Sequence record: NC_047742.1
DNA from: Enterobacteria phage IME_EC2
Strand: one strand, 5' to 3'
Length of the DNA stretch: 41,510 nt
Shown: piece after piece, positions 4,788 through 34,709 of the stretch
How the letters are laid out: each line of letters starts with the position of its first letter
Position numbering within the stretch: the first letter of the stretch is position 1
The notes under the pieces: generated by a model
What the model was told of the DNA's origin: nothing
What the model saw: only the letters and a program-made list of their open reading frames with translations
Databases searched by the model: none
Position numbers and translations under genes: made by a program

Positions 4788-5528
4788 TCAGAATGGAGCG
4801 TTTTCGATGTAGACCGCGACGGCGAAGCCTTCGGGCGTGGCGCTTCGGATGTTCTTCGTTCGTGTGCTGGATCCGCCCAGTCTCGACCAGCCCGGATTAT
4901 CCTTAACAGCCGGGACGCTCTGGAATGCCGGGAAGCGGAAGCCGCCACCGCACCAGATCCCCGTCTGCTTCGGGTACGCGTCCCGCGCCGGATAGATCTC
5001 CGGGTAGAGGCTATGCTGGTGATCCTCCGGCAAGTAGCCGCCGAAGTTGTAGGGGTGGAACCAGTGATCGCAAGGTCGCCACATCGTGGAGAGCCGGGAG
5101 ATCTTCGGATTCTCCAGCATCCAGGGGACCAGCGTTTTGTCCTCATAGTCGCCGTTTTCGTACCCGGCAAACGTAGCCACCTGCTCGACCATCTTCGCCA
5201 GCGCGACGGCCTTCTCCTGGAAGCGTGGATCCTTCTTGCGCTTCGCTTCCCACCATCTGGCCCCGGTACAGGTTAGATCGGTGCATTCAGCAAAGGAGGC
5301 CACGAAGATCACGCCCGGCCCGACTTCATCGGCGATTCTGAGCGCTTCTACTTCCGTGTTGTCTGCGTCGAACATCCGGCCCACACGGATCAGGTTCGGC
5401 TCGTCGGCGTCTGGGTGGATCCCTGGCTCGTGCTGCCCGTCATACATCCAGCATTCCACGCCAGCCTCCAGCCACTTGTCCACCATGATCCGGGTCAGGT
5501 TAAACAGGAAAATCGCCTTATGCTTCAC
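4788..5528 (-). CDS. hypothetical protein (246 aa) in Dam/clamp-like operon
   Basis: ORF 4788..5561 trimmed to GTG (VKHKAIF) with AGGA upstream; start is uncertain (an ATG 14 codons downstream is an alternative); no family recognised. Confidence 0.55.
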   Translation of the reverse strand: MKHKAIFLFNLTRIMVDKWLEAGVECWMYDGQHEPGIHPDADEPNLIRVGRMFDADNTEVEALRIADEVGPGVIFVASFAECTDLTCTGARWWEAKRKKDPRFQEKAVALAKMVEQVATFAGYENGDYEDKTLVPWMLENPKISRLSTMWRPCDHWFHPYNFGGYLPEDHQHSLYPEIYPARDAYPKQTGIWCGGGFRFPAFQSVPAVKDNPGWSRLGGSSTRTKNIRSATPEGFAVAVYIENAPF

Positions 5529-28993: not shown

Positions 28994-31231
28994 TTACAGG
29001 CCAGCGAGTCCTAACTGGCGATCGGCGGACTGCTGCGCCTGGCGTTCTGCCATCTCGCGAGCGTTCCGATCCTCCTGCTGGTTGTGGCCTTGCCCCTGAG
29101 CCTTGAGGAACAGATCCGCCTGTTTGTGGGCGTCGCTGTTCTGCTGGCTCACGTACTTCTGGAGGACGGCGATCGCGTTCATTAGCTGATCCTGCGGGAT
29201 AGCCGCCGCCTCTGCCATCGTCTTGACCGTCTGCGCCTGTTTCAGATTGCCGTCGGACGCGGTGCTCTGCGCCTTGAGTTGCAATTCTAAGCGCTTGTTC
29301 TCCTGCTCCATCACTGCGGCCTGTCCCTGCTGCGCTACGCCCTGAGCGGCTACCATCTCCGGGTTTTCCTGCTGCTGGGCCGCTTGCTGGGCCTGTTGAA
29401 CAAGGGCTTTTTCTTCGTCCGTCTGCGGCTTAATGATGCCATTCAGGAGAAGCTGGCGGCGGCTGTACTCTTTGAAGTCCTGCAAGCCTTCGCCGTCCAT
29501 GTTCATGATGATCAGGCCCATGACTACGGCGGCGTTCGGGTCGCCTGGTGCCATCGACTGGAGGAGCGTCGTCAGGCTGCGGACGGTTGCGGTCCGTTTG
29601 GTGCTGCTGGACTCACCCACATCGGCCTCGACCTCATATTTCCCGCGTTTCAGGTCGTTAATCGCGATCGCCTCGTCCGTGTCGCGGTCGATCACTTTCC
29701 CGGTCATTAACACGAGATCGTCGGTCCCGTCCTCGTTCTTGATTCGGACGTAGTTCTCCGAGCCGTAGACCTTGCGGGCCGCGCTGAGGTAAACACGCCC
29801 GCAATGGCGGAGGGTTTTCCCCAGGTTGTCCATGTAGAGAGCGCCCTGTCCGTCCATACGGGCGAAAATGGCCTCCACGGTTTCGGTCGCAAGGTTCGAC
29901 GGAAGGGCCTCGACCTGGGAGGATCCGACGATCTGCTGGATAGTGCTCCCGGTGTACTGAAGGACCGCCGCCAGCGCTGGAGAGAGCGGAGTCGATGGCG
30001 TGTAACCCAGTGGCCCGGCTTGCTGCACGACCTCACCAGCGGCATTACGGAGCGATTTCGCGGGCAAGTATGCCGGGCGTTTCGTGTTACGTTCCCCCCA
30101 GGCGTCCGCCAGCTTGCCGGGAATCATGTCGATATCCATGATCGGGATGTTATCGCCGCCAGACTGCGCGGCCTGGTCCGCCATCATGGACACGATCAGG
30201 TTTTCCAGACGTTGCGCGTCGAGGGCCTGGGTCGCGTGACCGCTTACGCGCTCCATGTTGTCGATAAACGAGCGGCGGGCGTTGAACACGAAGATCGGGA
30301 TCCATTCGAACGGGATCAGCTTCGGCTCCTCGATCCATTCACCGCCGGACATAAGGCCGCAATAGACCTTACGGCGTTTCACTTTGCGGTCCTTCTGGCG
30401 CTCCCAGCCTCCGGCCTTAAGCTCGTCCTCGATCTGCTCGATCTCGTCCTCGTCGTACACCTCCACGTCCCCGGTGAGTGGGTTCTTATAGGAGATCACG
30501 GTGGTGTCCTCGATCTTCACCTCGTAGTAACGCGCCAGGTAGATCGCGTCCTTCGTGGCCCAGTCGAATTGTTTCCCGGTGTCCATCGCCAGCAGGTCCT
30601 CCGGGGCGAGCGCGTCGGGATATTTCTCCTCGTACTTGTCCGGGGTCATGCTGAATAGCTCCGCCATCCACATGGCATCCGAACGATCGTACATTTTGGA
30701 GTCCTGATCGATAAACAGGCACGAGGCCGGATCATAGATCGGATAAAAGACAATATGCCGGGCCTCGTTGTCCGGGTCGAACTCGTCCTCCAGTTCGGTG
30801 TCCATGCGGAAAGCGCCCATTCCGCCCGTCACGCCGTCGTCGTAGGTATTGTCCACGGACTCCGGCCCGTTCGACTCCTGGAAGTCGGCGCGGAACTTGC
30901 CGTTTAACTTGTCCGCCAGTTCTTCGGAGGCCTGGGTGTCCTTCGGGCGGAAAGTAACATTGATGCGGTTCAGTCGGTAGTCGGTGATAATGCGATCCAC
31001 CTCGCGCCCGACCTTGTTAAGCTCGAATCGAGGGTATTTCTGGAATCGTTCATCATCCATCGCAAAGCCGGAGTTCGTCGATCCTTCCCATTGTGCGCCC
31101 GGAATGCGGACGAAACGGGCCGTTTCGATCATCTTCTTACGACTGGACTCCTCGCTCCCGATCGCGGCGCTTAACTTATTACGTGCGCATTCCTGCCAGT
31201 TCTGCGCCTTCTTCGTTGCTCGTGCCATCAT
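28994..31231 (-). CDS. portal protein, P22 gp1-like
   Basis: Aligns by eye with P22 portal (YYEV, VKRRKVY versus IKRRRVY, PEMVAAQGVAQQGQAAV versus PAMVQAQGVLLQGQAEL); Gln-rich C-terminal barrel region. Confidence 0.9.
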   Translation of the reverse strand: MMARATKKAQNWQECARNKLSAAIGSEESSRKKMIETARFVRIPGAQWEGSTNSGFAMDDERFQKYPRFELNKVGREVDRIITDYRLNRINVTFRPKDTQASEELADKLNGKFRADFQESNGPESVDNTYDDGVTGGMGAFRMDTELEDEFDPDNEARHIVFYPIYDPASCLFIDQDSKMYDRSDAMWMAELFSMTPDKYEEKYPDALAPEDLLAMDTGKQFDWATKDAIYLARYYEVKIEDTTVISYKNPLTGDVEVYDEDEIEQIEDELKAGGWERQKDRKVKRRKVYCGLMSGGEWIEEPKLIPFEWIPIFVFNARRSFIDNMERVSGHATQALDAQRLENLIVSMMADQAAQSGGDNIPIMDIDMIPGKLADAWGERNTKRPAYLPAKSLRNAAGEVVQQAGPLGYTPSTPLSPALAAVLQYTGSTIQQIVGSSQVEALPSNLATETVEAIFARMDGQGALYMDNLGKTLRHCGRVYLSAARKVYGSENYVRIKNEDGTDDLVLMTGKVIDRDTDEAIAINDLKRGKYEVEADVGESSSTKRTATVRSLTTLLQSMAPGDPNAAVVMGLIIMNMDGEGLQDFKEYSRRQLLLNGIIKPQTDEEKALVQQAQQAAQQQENPEMVAAQGVAQQGQAAVMEQENKRLELQLKAQSTASDGNLKQAQTVKTMAEAAAIPQDQLMNAIAVLQKYVSQQNSDAHKQADLFLKAQGQGHNQQEDRNAREMAERQAQQSADRQLGLAGL

Positions 31232-31246
31232 AATCTCCGGTATGGG

Positions 31247-32869
31247 TTAGCGGTTGCTCGGCACATTATAGCCGGAATAATCTTCATCTTTCGAGCGCTC
31301 CGGCGGTTGCATCAGCATACACAATACATCAGCCATGCCCGGAGACTTCATTTTCAGCTTAGTGCGCATCTGCGGCTTAGGCATACGCGCAAATTTCCCG
31401 TTGGTGTTGTAAATACGCGGAATGCGGCACACTTCGGCGCGGAGTTTGGCCATATGCTCCCCGATCCCCTCGCTGTCCAGGCTGATCAGGTCGTCCGGGT
31501 TGTGATAGACGCCCTTCACCACGGCCTCGTAAGTCCTTTCGAAGCGCTTCCGTAACAGGTAGATATCCTGGGAGCCACGGTTCGCGAAAGCGTCGATATT
31601 CTTCTGAATGTTGTCGCCCTTCGCCTTGTTGTTGAGCCAGTGATCCAGCTCCACAGGGTTGTCCGGGAACTTCACGCCGTCCCCGGCGTTGTAGCCATCT
31701 ACGAGGACGTTCGTCCCGGCGTATGAGTCCGTAACCTGGCGGCGGAGGCCAGCGCCCAGTCCGGCGCGGTCCCACACGAACGCCTCGATCCCGTGGTCCT
31801 TCGCCGTGTTGATCGCCTTGTCTACGGAGTCGTTCGCGTCCCCTTCGAACCATTCCTCCATATGGGTGACGACGGAGCCGAAGCGCTCGCCATATGCCTT
31901 GTTATCCGCCCCGACGTCCGCCGGGTCGAGTGCGCCGATCCTCATGCCGGACGGCTTGAATCCGAGTTTCTTGTGGGCGTCGATCGCCGCGTCGAACCAT
32001 TCCGCCGGGATAATCGCATCCGGTACGGAGTCGTTAAACATCCCGCCCCATACGTGATCAAACAGCGCTTTCGAGAGGGTTACGCGGTCGAACTCCATCT
32101 CCGATCGAAGCTCTGGGGGGAACCACGGATTATCTTCCCAGTTCACGCGGATAATCAGGTGGAGATCGTCCTCGTAAATGCCGTCCCGCTGGAGATCCTC
32201 CCAGAATGGAATGAGAAAACGCTGAGAAAACGCATCCTCCGAGGAGCCGGGGTTCGCGGTGAATAGCATCATGCCGCCCGTTTCGCGCATGGTCGGCGTA
32301 AGCTGGCGGAGAGACTCGGCGGAAAAGGTCTGCGCCTCCTCGCCCCAGAAGCGACGGAAGCCGAACGCGGACTTAACGCCCGCCGGGTCCCTGGCCATCC
32401 CCTTAAATCGGATGATCGCGCCGTTGGAGTGGCGGATCTCCTTCTCCAGTACCTCGAAGCCGTCCAGCCCGTAAGCCTCGATCCGGTTGACGAGGAGCGG
32501 GTGGACTGAATCCTTGATCGATGCCTGATACTCACGGAGACACATCGCGCTCGCTGCCTCGTCGTGGGCGTCCGCGTCGATGATCCCGCCGACGGTGAGC
32601 GACTTCCCGGAGCCACGGCCCCCGACCAGGATAATAAAGCGCTTAGGACGGAGGAGGATCGGGGTCAGACACTCCGCGATCGTAATGTCGTGCGGCTCGG
32701 AGGTGTAGATCCACTCTCCGTTAACCTTCTTCATGTTGTAGCAGTGCTTGGCGCTGGTCCCGTCCGGCTCATAGACGCCATAGACCAGCCCGCCGTCTCG
32801 TGCGACGTAAGCGGCCCGCCCCTCCAGGCGAGCCAGTCGATCGAGGTTATCCTTTCGATTTTTTGCCAT
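31247..32869 (-). CDS. terL: terminase large subunit
   Basis: Walker A VGGRGSGKS; position directly upstream of portal; N-terminal 45 aa may be an extension (start uncertain). Confidence 0.85.
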   Translation of the reverse strand: MAKNRKDNLDRLARLEGRAAYVARDGGLVYGVYEPDGTSAKHCYNMKKVNGEWIYTSEPHDITIAECLTPILLRPKRFIILVGGRGSGKSLTVGGIIDADAHDEAASAMCLREYQASIKDSVHPLLVNRIEAYGLDGFEVLEKEIRHSNGAIIRFKGMARDPAGVKSAFGFRRFWGEEAQTFSAESLRQLTPTMRETGGMMLFTANPGSSEDAFSQRFLIPFWEDLQRDGIYEDDLHLIIRVNWEDNPWFPPELRSEMEFDRVTLSKALFDHVWGGMFNDSVPDAIIPAEWFDAAIDAHKKLGFKPSGMRIGALDPADVGADNKAYGERFGSVVTHMEEWFEGDANDSVDKAINTAKDHGIEAFVWDRAGLGAGLRRQVTDSYAGTNVLVDGYNAGDGVKFPDNPVELDHWLNNKAKGDNIQKNIDAFANRGSQDIYLLRKRFERTYEAVVKGVYHNPDDLISLDSEGIGEHMAKLRAEVCRIPRIYNTNGKFARMPKPQMRTKLKMKSPGMADVLCMLMQPPERSKDEDYSGYNVPSNR

Positions 32870-33278
32870 AGCCCAGATCCCCGAAGGTCTGCTCCATCAT
32901 GTTAAACAGCCAGCCCACGAAGTACGCCTCCGGCTCGTCGTTGTTCGGGTCCCACTCGATCCCCAGCGTGTCGCCGATGTAGTTCTTAACGTGGACGATC
33001 TCGTGTGCGATCGTGGTCCGCCAGTATTGGCCCCGGCGGACGCCCACGAACACCAGCTTAACGTCGGCGGCGTGGTACTCAATGGCGACGCCCTGCTGGA
33101 TCTCCTTCTCCCGGCTCCAGTCGGGGAAGCATTCGCCCAGCTTCGCCACCATCTCCTCGTCCTGCGGGTCAAAGCACACGATAAAGTAAGGGTAAGGGGA
33201 CGCCGTGAACCATTTCAGGCCCAGCGCCTCCAGTCTGCCGTAAGTGTCCGGCGGTAGCTTATTCTTTTGATTCGCCAT
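32847..33278 (-). CDS. HExxH-motif protein (putative zinc metallopeptidase-like), 143 aa
   Basis: TIAHEIVHVKNY contains HExxH; GGAGG SD; overlaps both flanking terminase genes by about 20 nt. Confidence 0.5.
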   Translation of the reverse strand: MANQKNKLPPDTYGRLEALGLKWFTASPYPYFIVCFDPQDEEMVAKLGECFPDWSREKEIQQGVAIEYHAADVKLVFVGVRRGQYWRTTIAHEIVHVKNYIGDTLGIEWDPNNDEPEAYFVGWLFNMMEQTFGDLGYGKKSKG

Positions 33279-33810
33279 TCAGTCGGGCCTCCAGTGCGTC
33301 CAGACGTTTGACCATCTCGGACATTTCGAACACTTCCGCGCCGTGGCGGATCATCTTCACCATTGCCTCCGCCGCGTCGAACGGTAGCTCCCCATTCGCC
33401 ACCAGGTCCTCGATCTCGGTGATGCGCTCGGACGGGGTTGATCCGGTCAGTTCAAAGCAATAGGTCGGGCTGGTGGGCTTCGTGTAGGGAATGAGTCGGC
33501 TCATGATATCGCGCATCATTCCGCCGTCTACGAGGGCCATCTGGATCGCCCGCTGGATAAACATTTCCTCCGTGAGCGGGACCTCCACATATTCGTCCAC
33601 CATGATCGGCTCGCCCGTTTCGCTGTTCAGCTTCACCTCGCCAGTGTCGGGATCGATATCCTCAATTCTGCGCCCGGTCGCTTCCTTAACGCGTACTTTT
33701 CGGAGGGCTTCGAGGAGTAAGGTCCGGTTCTGCTTGGCCCTCCCGCGTCGCTCTGGCTGGTTGTCTTTGGAGAACTTGTTCCCCTTTTTTAAATTCTGCT
33801 CGTTAGCCAC
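33259..33810 (-). CDS. terS: terminase small subunit (by position)
   Basis: Basic N-terminus, acidic C-terminus; directly upstream of terL; GTG start with GGAGGA SD; no sequence match to P22 gp3 recognised. Confidence 0.5.
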   Translation of the reverse strand: MANEQNLKKGNKFSKDNQPERRGRAKQNRTLLLEALRKVRVKEATGRRIEDIDPDTGEVKLNSETGEPIMVDEYVEVPLTEEMFIQRAIQMALVDGGMMRDIMSRLIPYTKPTSPTYCFELTGSTPSERITEIEDLVANGELPFDAAEAMVKMIRHGAEVFEMSEMVKRLDALEARLNGESKE

Positions 33811-33882: not shown

Positions 33883-34173
33883 TCAAGTCCGCTTAAACGA
33901 GAGATCCGGGCATAGGTGCATATTCTCGGCGGTGATAGGCCAGGGGCTTACGGGATGGTTAAACGCCTGGACGTCGCGCTTTTTGGCGATGTAGCCCCGG
34001 CTCTTGCCCTTCGGCTCCGTCAGGCTGGCGCACATGATGCAAGCGCCGTTTGACGTGTACCGGGTGAAGTTGCCCGCGTGGATCTTGCACTCCGGGCCGC
34101 GATACAGTTTAGCCTTTATCAGCCGGGCCTCCGCCTTGCTGCGGGCGACGGTGCGCCCCTTGTCGATCGCCAT
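33883..34173 (-). CDS. Cys-containing small protein (96 aa, C-x2-H ... C-x2-C)
   Basis: ORF track; possible zinc ribbon. Confidence 0.45.
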   Translation of the reverse strand: MAIDKGRTVARSKAEARLIKAKLYRGPECKIHAGNFTRYTSNGACIMCASLTEPKGKSRGYIAKKRDVQAFNHPVSPWPITAENMHLCPDLSFKRT

Positions 34174-34643
34174 CAGTCACAGCCCCCGGACGAGTAGCTG
34201 GAGGAGTCGCTCCCGCTGTCGTAGCTGCTGCTGGACTCATAGCCGGAGGAGTGGCTGGTGTGGCGGCTGCTGTCGTCGCACACGCTGGAGACGCTGCTCG
34301 CTTCATACTGGCGGTGGCTGCTGCTGTCCCAGTCGTTCAGCGGGTTAAGAGGCGACACTGGGGAGATCGGGTTTAACGGGTTGAGGATGTGCATCGGGTC
34401 CGACGTCGGATCCTGCTGCGTACCGCGAGCCGCCGGGCGTTTGTCCTGCGCCATAGCGCGGGCCATTGCTGCGGCGTGGCTCTTGTTCGCCATGCTGCGC
34501 GGTGCGGTCAGTGTCCGATATCCCAGGACCTCGCCTACGGTCTTGTTACGGCACACGCTACAGATAAACTCTTTCTCCTCGGTCCATCCTCTCGGCTCCG
34601 TCGCGCCACAGGTGCGGCATTCTTTCGTTCTGGTGATTGACAT
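34173..34643 (-). CDS. zinc-ribbon protein with Ser-rich low-complexity C-terminal tail
   Basis: CRTC-x16-CSVC motif; LNPLNPISPVSPLNPLN and Ser-rich tail; trimmed to ATG (MSITRT). Confidence 0.5.
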   Translation of the reverse strand: MSITRTKECRTCGATEPRGWTEEKEFICSVCRNKTVGEVLGYRTLTAPRSMANKSHAAAMARAMAQDKRPAARGTQQDPTSDPMHILNPLNPISPVSPLNPLNDWDSSSHRQYEASSVSSVCDDSSRHTSHSSGYESSSSYDSGSDSSSYSSGGCD

Positions 34644-34709
34644 TGTTCGATCTCTCTCGTTGGGTGGAATTGGCCCCAGCATATCGCCGGGGCGCACATC
34701 ATGCAAGCG

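Follow-up and report, generated by a model that had tools for sequence, protein, structure and literature searches.

A predicted minimal zincin of a widespread phage family, encoded upstream of the large terminase gene of Enterobacteria phage IME_EC2

Zincins form a well-known superfamily, and phages commonly encode small ones. Known minimal forms include the minigluzincins proabylysin and projannalysin, soluble zincins of ~100 amino acids (aa) related to M48/M56, which Lopez-Pelegrin and colleagues are said to have described in 2013. HEXXH-X18-E is the classical gluzincin spacing of M1 peptidases such as LTA4 hydrolase, and X19-E that of thermolysin (M4). SprT-like/Wss1/Spartan proteins (PF10263) are also small HExxH zincins and are common in phages. 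Metallopeptidase (MPTase) domains occur in phage and plasmid polyvalent proteins too, in phages often near head or packaging genes, and processing roles have been proposed for phage MPTases, including those of head-packaged polyvalent proteins (PMC5512222). As defined there by Iyer et al. 2017, the zincin-like core consists of a small sheet, an N-terminal helix, an HExxH motif in the first C-terminal helix and a Glu in the second. Here we analyse a 143-aa open reading frame (ORF) with a single HExxH motif, called the Zn ORF below, in the genome of Enterobacteria phage IME_EC2 (NC_047742.1), whose whole sequence of 41,510 nucleotides (nt) is referred to as the window. The Zn ORF was first pointed out in a reading made from the letters of the window (the sequence-only reading), which placed it between the genes for the small (terS) and large (terL) terminase subunits. 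We confirm this location, with a terS candidate on one side and terL on the other, and add that the gene lies on the minus strand.

With the M1 aminopeptidases the Zn protein shares the X18-E spacing, but it is only 143 aa long and has no Peptidase_M1 match in Pfam. One of its neighbours among predicted viral structures is labelled 'PolyVal Metallopeptidase superfamily domain'; unlike the MPTase domains of polyvalent proteins, however, members of the Zn family are free-standing proteins of ~110-145 aa with a fixed signature of their own, HExxHxxN-x13-NDExxAY, and MPTase-PolyVal is not among the Pfam families listed for 80 members at E<=0.1. From the SprT-like proteins it differs in its predicted third ligand, a Glu and not a His, in having no Zn-ribbon/DNA-binding tail and in being acidic. 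Its minimal size and its plan of a sheet, a backing helix, an active-site helix and a glutamate helix are similar to those reported for the minigluzincins. The family to which it belongs, phrog_1365, has neither a Pfam model nor a relative of known structure, and no function has been assigned to it; literature searches on phrog_1365, on phage zincin anti-defence proteins and on HExxH genes at terminases returned no paper on it.

Gene, family and predicted metal site

The pairwise ratio of nonsynonymous to synonymous substitution rates (dN/dS) of the Zn ORF is 0.21-0.38 against its orthologues in KMB41, Sortsne and sortkaff; for comparison, terL gave 0.11-0.20 and the terS candidate 0.16-0.35. 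The Zn protein also matches the hidden Markov model (HMM) of phrog_1365, annotated as 'unknown function', over aa 5-141 (E value in Table 1). On these two grounds, the Zn ORF is a real gene. The same HMM is matched by the proteins that occupy the equivalent slot in phages IME279, C130_2, Skarpretter and Kc259, and by proteins of ESCO47 and Flavobacterium phage 1/32. Neither Pfam nor PADLOC gave a match for the Zn protein at E<=1, and NCBIfam gave no meaningful one; since PADLOC covers host defence proteins and not phage counter-defence, its negative result says little on an anti-defence role. A search of the PDB with the single Zn protein sequence found no meaningful match, and the sole match obtained with an 80-sequence profile was to an M48 HtpX homologue, in its HExxH region, and was not significant (E 1.2).

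The extent of the family was estimated with an HMM built from eight close homologues and searched exhaustively against 1.84 billion representative proteins. At E<=1e-3 it comprises 459 clusters at 50% identity, nearly all of 105-165 aa, and a fusion was never seen among its members. Three matches of the HMM to giant proteins, considered as possible polyvalent-protein fusions, were rejected as spurious, the proteins being of cadherin-repeat or PAS-repeat type. The Zn protein itself has an isoelectric point (pI) of 5.0 and a net charge of about -6. Reading of its sequence revealed neither a signal peptide nor a hydrophobic N-terminus, and the family alignment contains no conserved Cys cluster.

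The HEIVH of the Zn protein is the only HExxH in any genuine reading frame of the window. Stop-free segments of 100 aa or more, 29,180 aa in total, contain one other, and it lies antisense to a long ORF of the structural module. Taken alone, an HExxH is weak evidence. We therefore give weight to its behaviour across the family, using an alignment of 80 diverse members (20-35% identical to the Zn protein) and a set of 197 small members retrieved for counting the spacing. H92, E93, H96 and E115 are invariant in 80 of the 80 aligned members, and Y29, G106, N113, D114, A118 and Y119 are conserved in at least 90% of them. HExxH is present in 197 of the 197 retrieved members, an invariance that strengthens the case for a metal site, and 195 carry the exact HExxH-x18-E, exactly 18 residues separating E115 from H96 in the Zn protein. 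Written out, the family signature is HExxH[IVA]xN-x13-NDExxAY. Of the roles proposed in the sequence-only reading, a zinc metallopeptidase thus appears the best, judging by the family-wide HExxH and the invariant candidate third ligand E115.

An AlphaFold2 model computed from the 80-sequence alignment reached a predicted local distance difference test score (pLDDT) of 91.8 and a predicted template modelling score (pTM) of 0.85. Its elements are, in order, helix 12-19, strands 22-25 and 31-36, helix 41-50, strands 63-69 and 74-80, helix 86-105 with the HExxH, a conserved loop of nine residues and helix 115-134, which begins at E115. This order is that of the zincin-like core described above (PMC5512222), and three features by which the superfamily is recognised are present: the HExxH in a helix, a conserved Glu in the helix that follows, and a sheet with a backing helix N-terminal to the active-site helix. 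From the model we infer that H92, H96 and E115 would converge on one metal site. The Zn protein is likely a metal-dependent hydrolase of the zincin type.

Searches with the model among predicted viral structures (BFVD) gave 28 matches at E<=1e-3, almost all of them to uncharacterised small phage proteins. The neighbours that bear a name are called 'SprT-like family protein', 'Metalloprotease', 'PolyVal Metallopeptidase superfamily domain' and 'SprT-like' (E 3.7e-5 to 4.5e-3). A Pfam scan of the 80 members returned only sub-threshold matches anchored on the HExxH: SprT-like in seven members (best E 5e-4), DUF5700 also in seven (best E 8e-4), Peptidase_M78 in one (E 0.064) and eCIS_core/DUF4157 (PF13699) in one (E 0.056), neither of the last two being found for the Zn protein itself. 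Profile comparison with the SprT-like, ImmA/IrrE and DUF4157 families, which had been suggested earlier as a check, therefore reached a few of the 80 members below threshold and gave nothing for the Zn protein.

Exchange and loss of the gene in the terminase slot

According to the sequence records and PMC7552041, the window is the genome of a Murrayvirus-type lytic podovirus. The setting had been described as P22-like; this holds for the portal, which is of P22 type, but a Murrayvirus is not P22-like in the strict sense. The late operon on the minus strand runs from the 183-aa terS candidate through the Zn ORF and terL to the portal gene. As for the neighbours named in the sequence-only reading, terL is confirmed by its domain match, whereas terS is assigned by position only (Table 1). 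Aligned across terS-terL, Escherichia phage sortsyn is 96.7% identical to the window; the values for ST231, sortregn, KMB41 and Sortsne are 81-93%.

The order terS candidate, Zn ORF, terL is found in five podovirus lineages and in a sixth, unannotated genome. The slot is occupied, with overlapping junctions, in Murrayvirus (the window, sortsyn, sortregn, ST231, KMB41), in Sortsnevirus (Sortsne, sortkaff, IME279), in Hungariovirus C130_2, in Skarpretter (Skarprettervirus), in Kosakonia phage Kc259 and in a Sortsne-like phage contig binned into a metagenome-assembled genome (MAG). In the unannotated Stutzerimonas phage STP9, both genes are adjacent in the same arrangement by tblastn position. 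The slot occupants are as little as 21-30% identical to one another, and all those tested match phrog_1365 and retain the signature. The synteny check thus shows a slot kept across the five lineages and STP9. The proposal was to be given up if the ORF were absent or non-conserved in close relatives and had no third ligand; overall, we found the gene in relatives and a candidate third ligand in its product. The slot is empty in Vibrio phage H2, where a terS candidate of the same family overlaps terL directly with no gene between.

Within the terS-terL region, two phages of the Sortsnevirus group differ almost exclusively at the Zn ORF. Sortkaff, whose isolation host was E. coli, and IME279, obtained on Klebsiella, share 100% aa identity in terL, 99% in the terS candidate and 28% in the Zn ORF. 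At the nucleotide level they are 98.2% identical to the end of terS (sortkaff locus nt 510) and 99.2% identical from the start of terL (nt 901). Between these flanks (sortkaff L005 nt 511-900 compared with the reverse strand of IME279 L006, equivalent to window 32870..33258), nothing can be aligned. The ends of the flanking identity place the breakpoints of the swap in the short (~20-nt) overlaps at the two gene junctions, and this position of the breakpoints explains why MS(R/K)KNK at the N-terminus and GKKS at the C-terminus are conserved. The Zn allele of the window is 84% identical to that of Sortsne and 73% to that of its congener KMB41; the relation is reversed for terS (62% to Sortsne, 88% to KMB41) and for terL (85% and 95%, respectively).

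A natural deletion was found in Salmonella phage Lumpael (Murrayvirus, MK125141.1). It comprises 263 nt, removes Zn codons ~4-91 and frameshifts the remainder. In window coordinates it extends over about 33006..33268 (L105 nt 1-165), and the ends of the record fall inside the gene remnant. Through the deletion the terS frame continues into 36 out-of-frame residues; the record names the 217-aa fusion 'putative recombinase'. If the record is accurate, Lumpael would be a plaque-forming phage without a functional Zn gene.

The sortkaff/IME279 swap, the Lumpael deletion (with the same proviso) and the arrangement in Vibrio phage H2 imply that the Zn ORF is not obligatory for packaging. A core packaging gene is co-conserved and co-evolving with terS and terL and is indispensable, and the Zn ORF does not behave in this way. 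The earlier suggestion of a packaging accessory factor is therefore contradicted by the swap, by the deletion and by the relatives in which the terS candidate abuts terL. These findings fit a gene that is of use conditionally; it is probably accessory rather than core.

Phage genomes reportedly evolve in a modular way, as put forward by Botstein in 1980, by exchange of cassettes between conserved junction ('linker') sequences. The Zn gene resembles moron-like cassettes in that one allele has been replaced by another, 28% identical, between flanks that are 98-99% identical, in its sporadic distribution and in its natural loss in Lumpael. It differs from them in having no promoter or terminator of its own and in lying inside an essential late operon, to which overlapping start and stop codons tie it.

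Genomic contexts and possible roles

Family copies also occur away from the slot. Among the T4-like phages of the phage database, ESCO47 (Mosigvirus) alone has a family copy, which lies in the nrd/early region. This copy (L001 nt 5001-5411) is situated between a glutaredoxin gene and the gp55 region, and its best matches are Murrayvirus alleles, at ~36% identity; the comparison suggests that it was acquired laterally among coliphages. In a Guernseyvirinae phage the family copy follows DNA polymerase I, in Flavobacterium phage FpV9 it is in the replication region and in Flavobacterium phage 1/32 directly after terL. In an environmental phage contig (L009) it lies ~1.3 kb downstream of the portal gene, in crAss two genes upstream of the major capsid gene, and in phage contigs of 70-126 kb within arrays of small ORFs.

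A motif search of IMG/VR with a 26-sequence subset gave a sample of 76 loci, which fall into 25 clusters at 70% identity. The adjoining genes are for the most part ORFs of 50-120 aa on the same strand; the large ones tested include SPP1-type portals (3), GroEL (2 tested, and a third locus that is laid out alike), ThyX and a primase-helicase. The portals precede the family copy directly in L064 and L103 and by ~600 nt in L058. Within 3.5 kb of the family copies in the 25 lineages there are 37 ORFs of at least 250 aa, four of which match Terminase_3 and two Terminase_6N. By a rough estimate, terL near ~5-6 of 25 lineages is about what chance would give for a 7-kb interval in genomes of 40-100 kb; terL is thus not clearly enriched near family members in this sample, and no general linkage to terminase emerges. 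Nor was a conserved partner gene found among the IMG/VR neighbours, which are mostly unrelated small ORFs.

Chaperonin genes recur at a few loci. In L085, L093 and L101 (IMG/VR), a phage GroEL-like gene follows the family gene at a distance of 250-325 nt, confirmed by Pfam in L085 and L093 and judged by layout in L101, and in L010 (ENA contig k141_149123) the family gene lies ~2 kb upstream of a GroES (Cpn10) gene. The three GroEL cases are alike in layout and in contig size, which is ~94-96 kb for two of them, and possibly reflect shared ancestry rather than a general link.

A one-variant motif scan of one genome for each of 185,579 bacterial and archaeal species gave three confirmed hits, all on MAG contigs, one of which is a Sortsne-like phage contig. 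The distribution of the family points, as a strong tendency and not as proof, to a restriction to phages.

On balance, we consider it probable that the Zn ORF encodes a Zn-dependent minimal gluzincin peptidase, made late by coupling in the packaging operon, whose substrate is not a conserved packaging protein. Such an enzyme would be a cytoplasmic, stand-alone minimal zincin with zinc held by H92, H96 and E115. E93 would activate water, a nearly invariant Tyr, Y29 or Y119, could stabilise the transition state and the small N-terminal beta-sheet would bind the substrate strand. The start and stop overlaps of ~20 nt with the neighbouring genes would couple its late synthesis to that of the packaging proteins, and the conserved overlap junctions would act as recombination linkers for an exchangeable, dispensable accessory cassette. 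Cleavage would then be directed at a host or host defence protein rather than at a conserved phage protein, although we propose such a substrate tentatively and as a speculation.

Terminase and portal are recognised by several bacterial immune sensors, for example Avs/AVAST. Phage-restricted minimal zincins might accordingly be pictured as exchangeable counter-defence or host-range cassettes, in which a protease made together with terminase and portal would cleave immune sensors or another host factor as the triggers appear. Target specificity would lie in the N-terminal halves, in which the alleles diverge, and the swap between the E. coli phage sortkaff and the otherwise near-identical Klebsiella phage IME279 would be explained in this way. 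We regard this more elaborate scheme as rather improbable.

Several points weigh against the minimal gluzincin as we picture it. Both Zn binding and peptidase activity are features that we infer. E115 is at the very N-terminus of its helix and H96 nine residues before the end of the preceding one, so that E115 can reach the metal only if the nine-residue loop folds back. The Lumpael deletion may be an artefact of assembly, and the scan of species genomes used one motif variant, NDE[PA]EAY[LF], which about a third of the retrieved members carry. Finally, several family members adjoin a portal, terL or major capsid gene, which leaves room for a morphogenetic substrate.

This last point leads to the alternative of a morphogenetic or packaging protease, which during head assembly would act on one of the phage's own proteins and trim the portal, ejection/internal proteins, the scaffold or terminase itself. 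The coupling of the Zn ORF within the terS-terL-portal operon speaks for it, but in the same operon 28%-identical alleles are tolerated beside terS and terL that are 99-100% identical, Lumpael has no functional copy and relatives with the same terS family have no Zn gene. Likewise, the copies beside head genes (the portals of L064, L103, L058 and L009, terL in 1/32, the crAss capsid) agree with the processing roles suggested for phage MPTases (PMC5512222), but most members are found among small early-type ORFs or replication genes, and the proximity to terL is close to chance as estimated above. We therefore judge a morphogenetic substrate unlikely.

Members of the family adjoin DNA-handling genes as well (terL, DNA polymerase I, exonuclease, nrd genes, primase-helicase). 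Together with the weak SprT-like matches in the Pfam scan and the 'SprT-like' labels in BFVD, this could evoke a SprT/Wss1-like DNA-protein crosslink protease, clearing trapped proteins from phage DNA before replication or packaging. The Zn protein itself, however, has no SprT-like (PF10263) match even at E<=1, the conserved third ligand is a Glu and no third His is conserved besides H92 and H96. Moreover, an acidic protein with no Zn-ribbon, no conserved Cys cluster and no basic DNA-binding region makes this activity very unlikely.

We give still less credit to the idea that the HExxH is incidental and the protein an HNH-like packaging nuclease, a pseudo-enzyme or a structural adaptor. The residues H, E, H and E are kept without change, at fixed spacing, in nearly 200 sequences whose overall identity is only 20-30%, a pattern that marks a catalytic metal site. 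The HNH-type nuclease was also rejected on its own account, as the beta-strands contain no invariant His, Asn or Cys as the HNH finger needs and there is no HNH match in Pfam. Least probable of all is an ImmA/IrrE (M78)-type regulatory protease cleaving a cognate repressor or antitoxin, given the single Peptidase_M78 (PF06114) match among the 80 members, the spacing fixed at x18, the lack of an adjacent helix-turn-helix (HTH) partner gene in the contexts examined, the lytic lifestyle of the carriers and the fact that the one-variant motif scan detected the family in no bacterial chromosome or prophage.

Features of the locus and significance of the family

The coordinates of the Zn ORF, of its predicted metal site and of the surrounding genes are collected in Table 1.

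Table 1. Features of the Zn ORF and its neighbourhood (window positions)
Feature	Position	Strand	Basis
HEIVH, aa 92-96, predicted Zn ligands H92/H96 and general base E93, in helix 86-105	32991..33005	-	invariant in family; helix from model
NDEPEAY, aa 113-119, with E115 as predicted third Zn ligand at start of helix 115-134	32922..32942	-	E115 invariant
Zn ORF, 143 aa, ATG start, phrog_1365 family	32847..33278	-	ORF call; phrog_1365 E 1.8e-19
terS candidate, 183 aa, phrog_9747	33259..33810	-	position only
terL, 540 aa, Terminase_3	31247..32869	-	PF04466 E 1.6e-31
Portal protein, 745 aa, P22_portal; next gene downstream, same operon	28994..31231	-	PF16510 E 3.5e-156
20-nt overlap, terS-candidate 3' end / Zn ORF 5' end; upstream swap boundary in relatives	33259..33278	-	ORF coordinates; sortkaff/IME279 identity ends at terS stop
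23-nt overlap, Zn ORF 3' end / terL 5' end; downstream swap boundary in relatives; encodes conserved GKKS(KG) tail	32847..32869	-	
GGAGG, Shine-Dalgarno-like, 9 nt upstream of Zn ORF ATG, within terS-candidate coding sequence	33288..33292	-	read from sequence

The overlaps with both neighbours, which the sequence-only reading had put at about 20 nt, are borne out by measurement. They are consistent with translational coupling, and co-translation with the packaging genes, claimed at the same time, would follow from them to that extent; from its position, the Zn ORF would be expressed late and coupled in translation to the packaging proteins. Both of its junctions are A-rich overlaps of 20-23 nt, and the terS/terL overlap of Vibrio phage H2 (20 nt) is of similar type. 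The N-termini of the terS candidate, Zn ORF and terL products all begin with MA(N/K) followed by a Lys/Asn/Arg-rich stretch with A-rich codons (MANEQNLKK, MANQKNK and MAKNRKD). A frameshift fusion of the Zn ORF with terS or terL was considered and discarded: a +1 shift would be needed at both junctions, and no classical slippery heptamer is present.

The 183-aa terS candidate gave no match, to a terS model or otherwise, in Pfam or the PDB, and phrog_9747 is annotated as 'unknown function'. Its homologues occur in 129 phage records and, in those checked, lie directly upstream of terL or of a Zn ORF. The phages that carry them infect Vibrio, Salmonella, Klebsiella, Streptomyces and Pseudomonas, and annotations in related records vary ('DNA gyrase subunit A', 'putative recombinase', 'coil containing protein'). 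Just upstream of the terS candidate, two ORFs, 33883..34173 (-) and 34173..34706 (-), encode zinc-ribbon-like Cys-pair motifs, CKIH...CIMC in the first and CRTCG...CSVCRNK in the second. The product of the second also carries an extended low-complexity tail rich in Ser.

No new category is involved: phrog_1365 is a new family within a known superfamily. What the analysis provides for this widespread phage family is a defined signature, HExxHxxN-x13-NDExxAY, together with a confidently predicted structure and a natural genetic framework. The family spans crAss-like, jumbo, Bacteroidota-infecting and enterobacterial phages and one T4-like phage (ESCO47) and comprises at least 459 clusters at 50% identity. 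For annotation, it is relevant that genes between terS and terL tend to be taken for packaging factors. The sortkaff/IME279 swap and the Lumpael deletion offer ready isogenic comparisons for finding the substrate. If the substrate proves to be a host defence or host-range factor, these proteins would represent a new class of small proteolytic counter-defence genes. For the organisation of phage genomes, the locus indicates that a gene embedded by overlapping codons in an essential packaging operon can still act as a mobile cassette.

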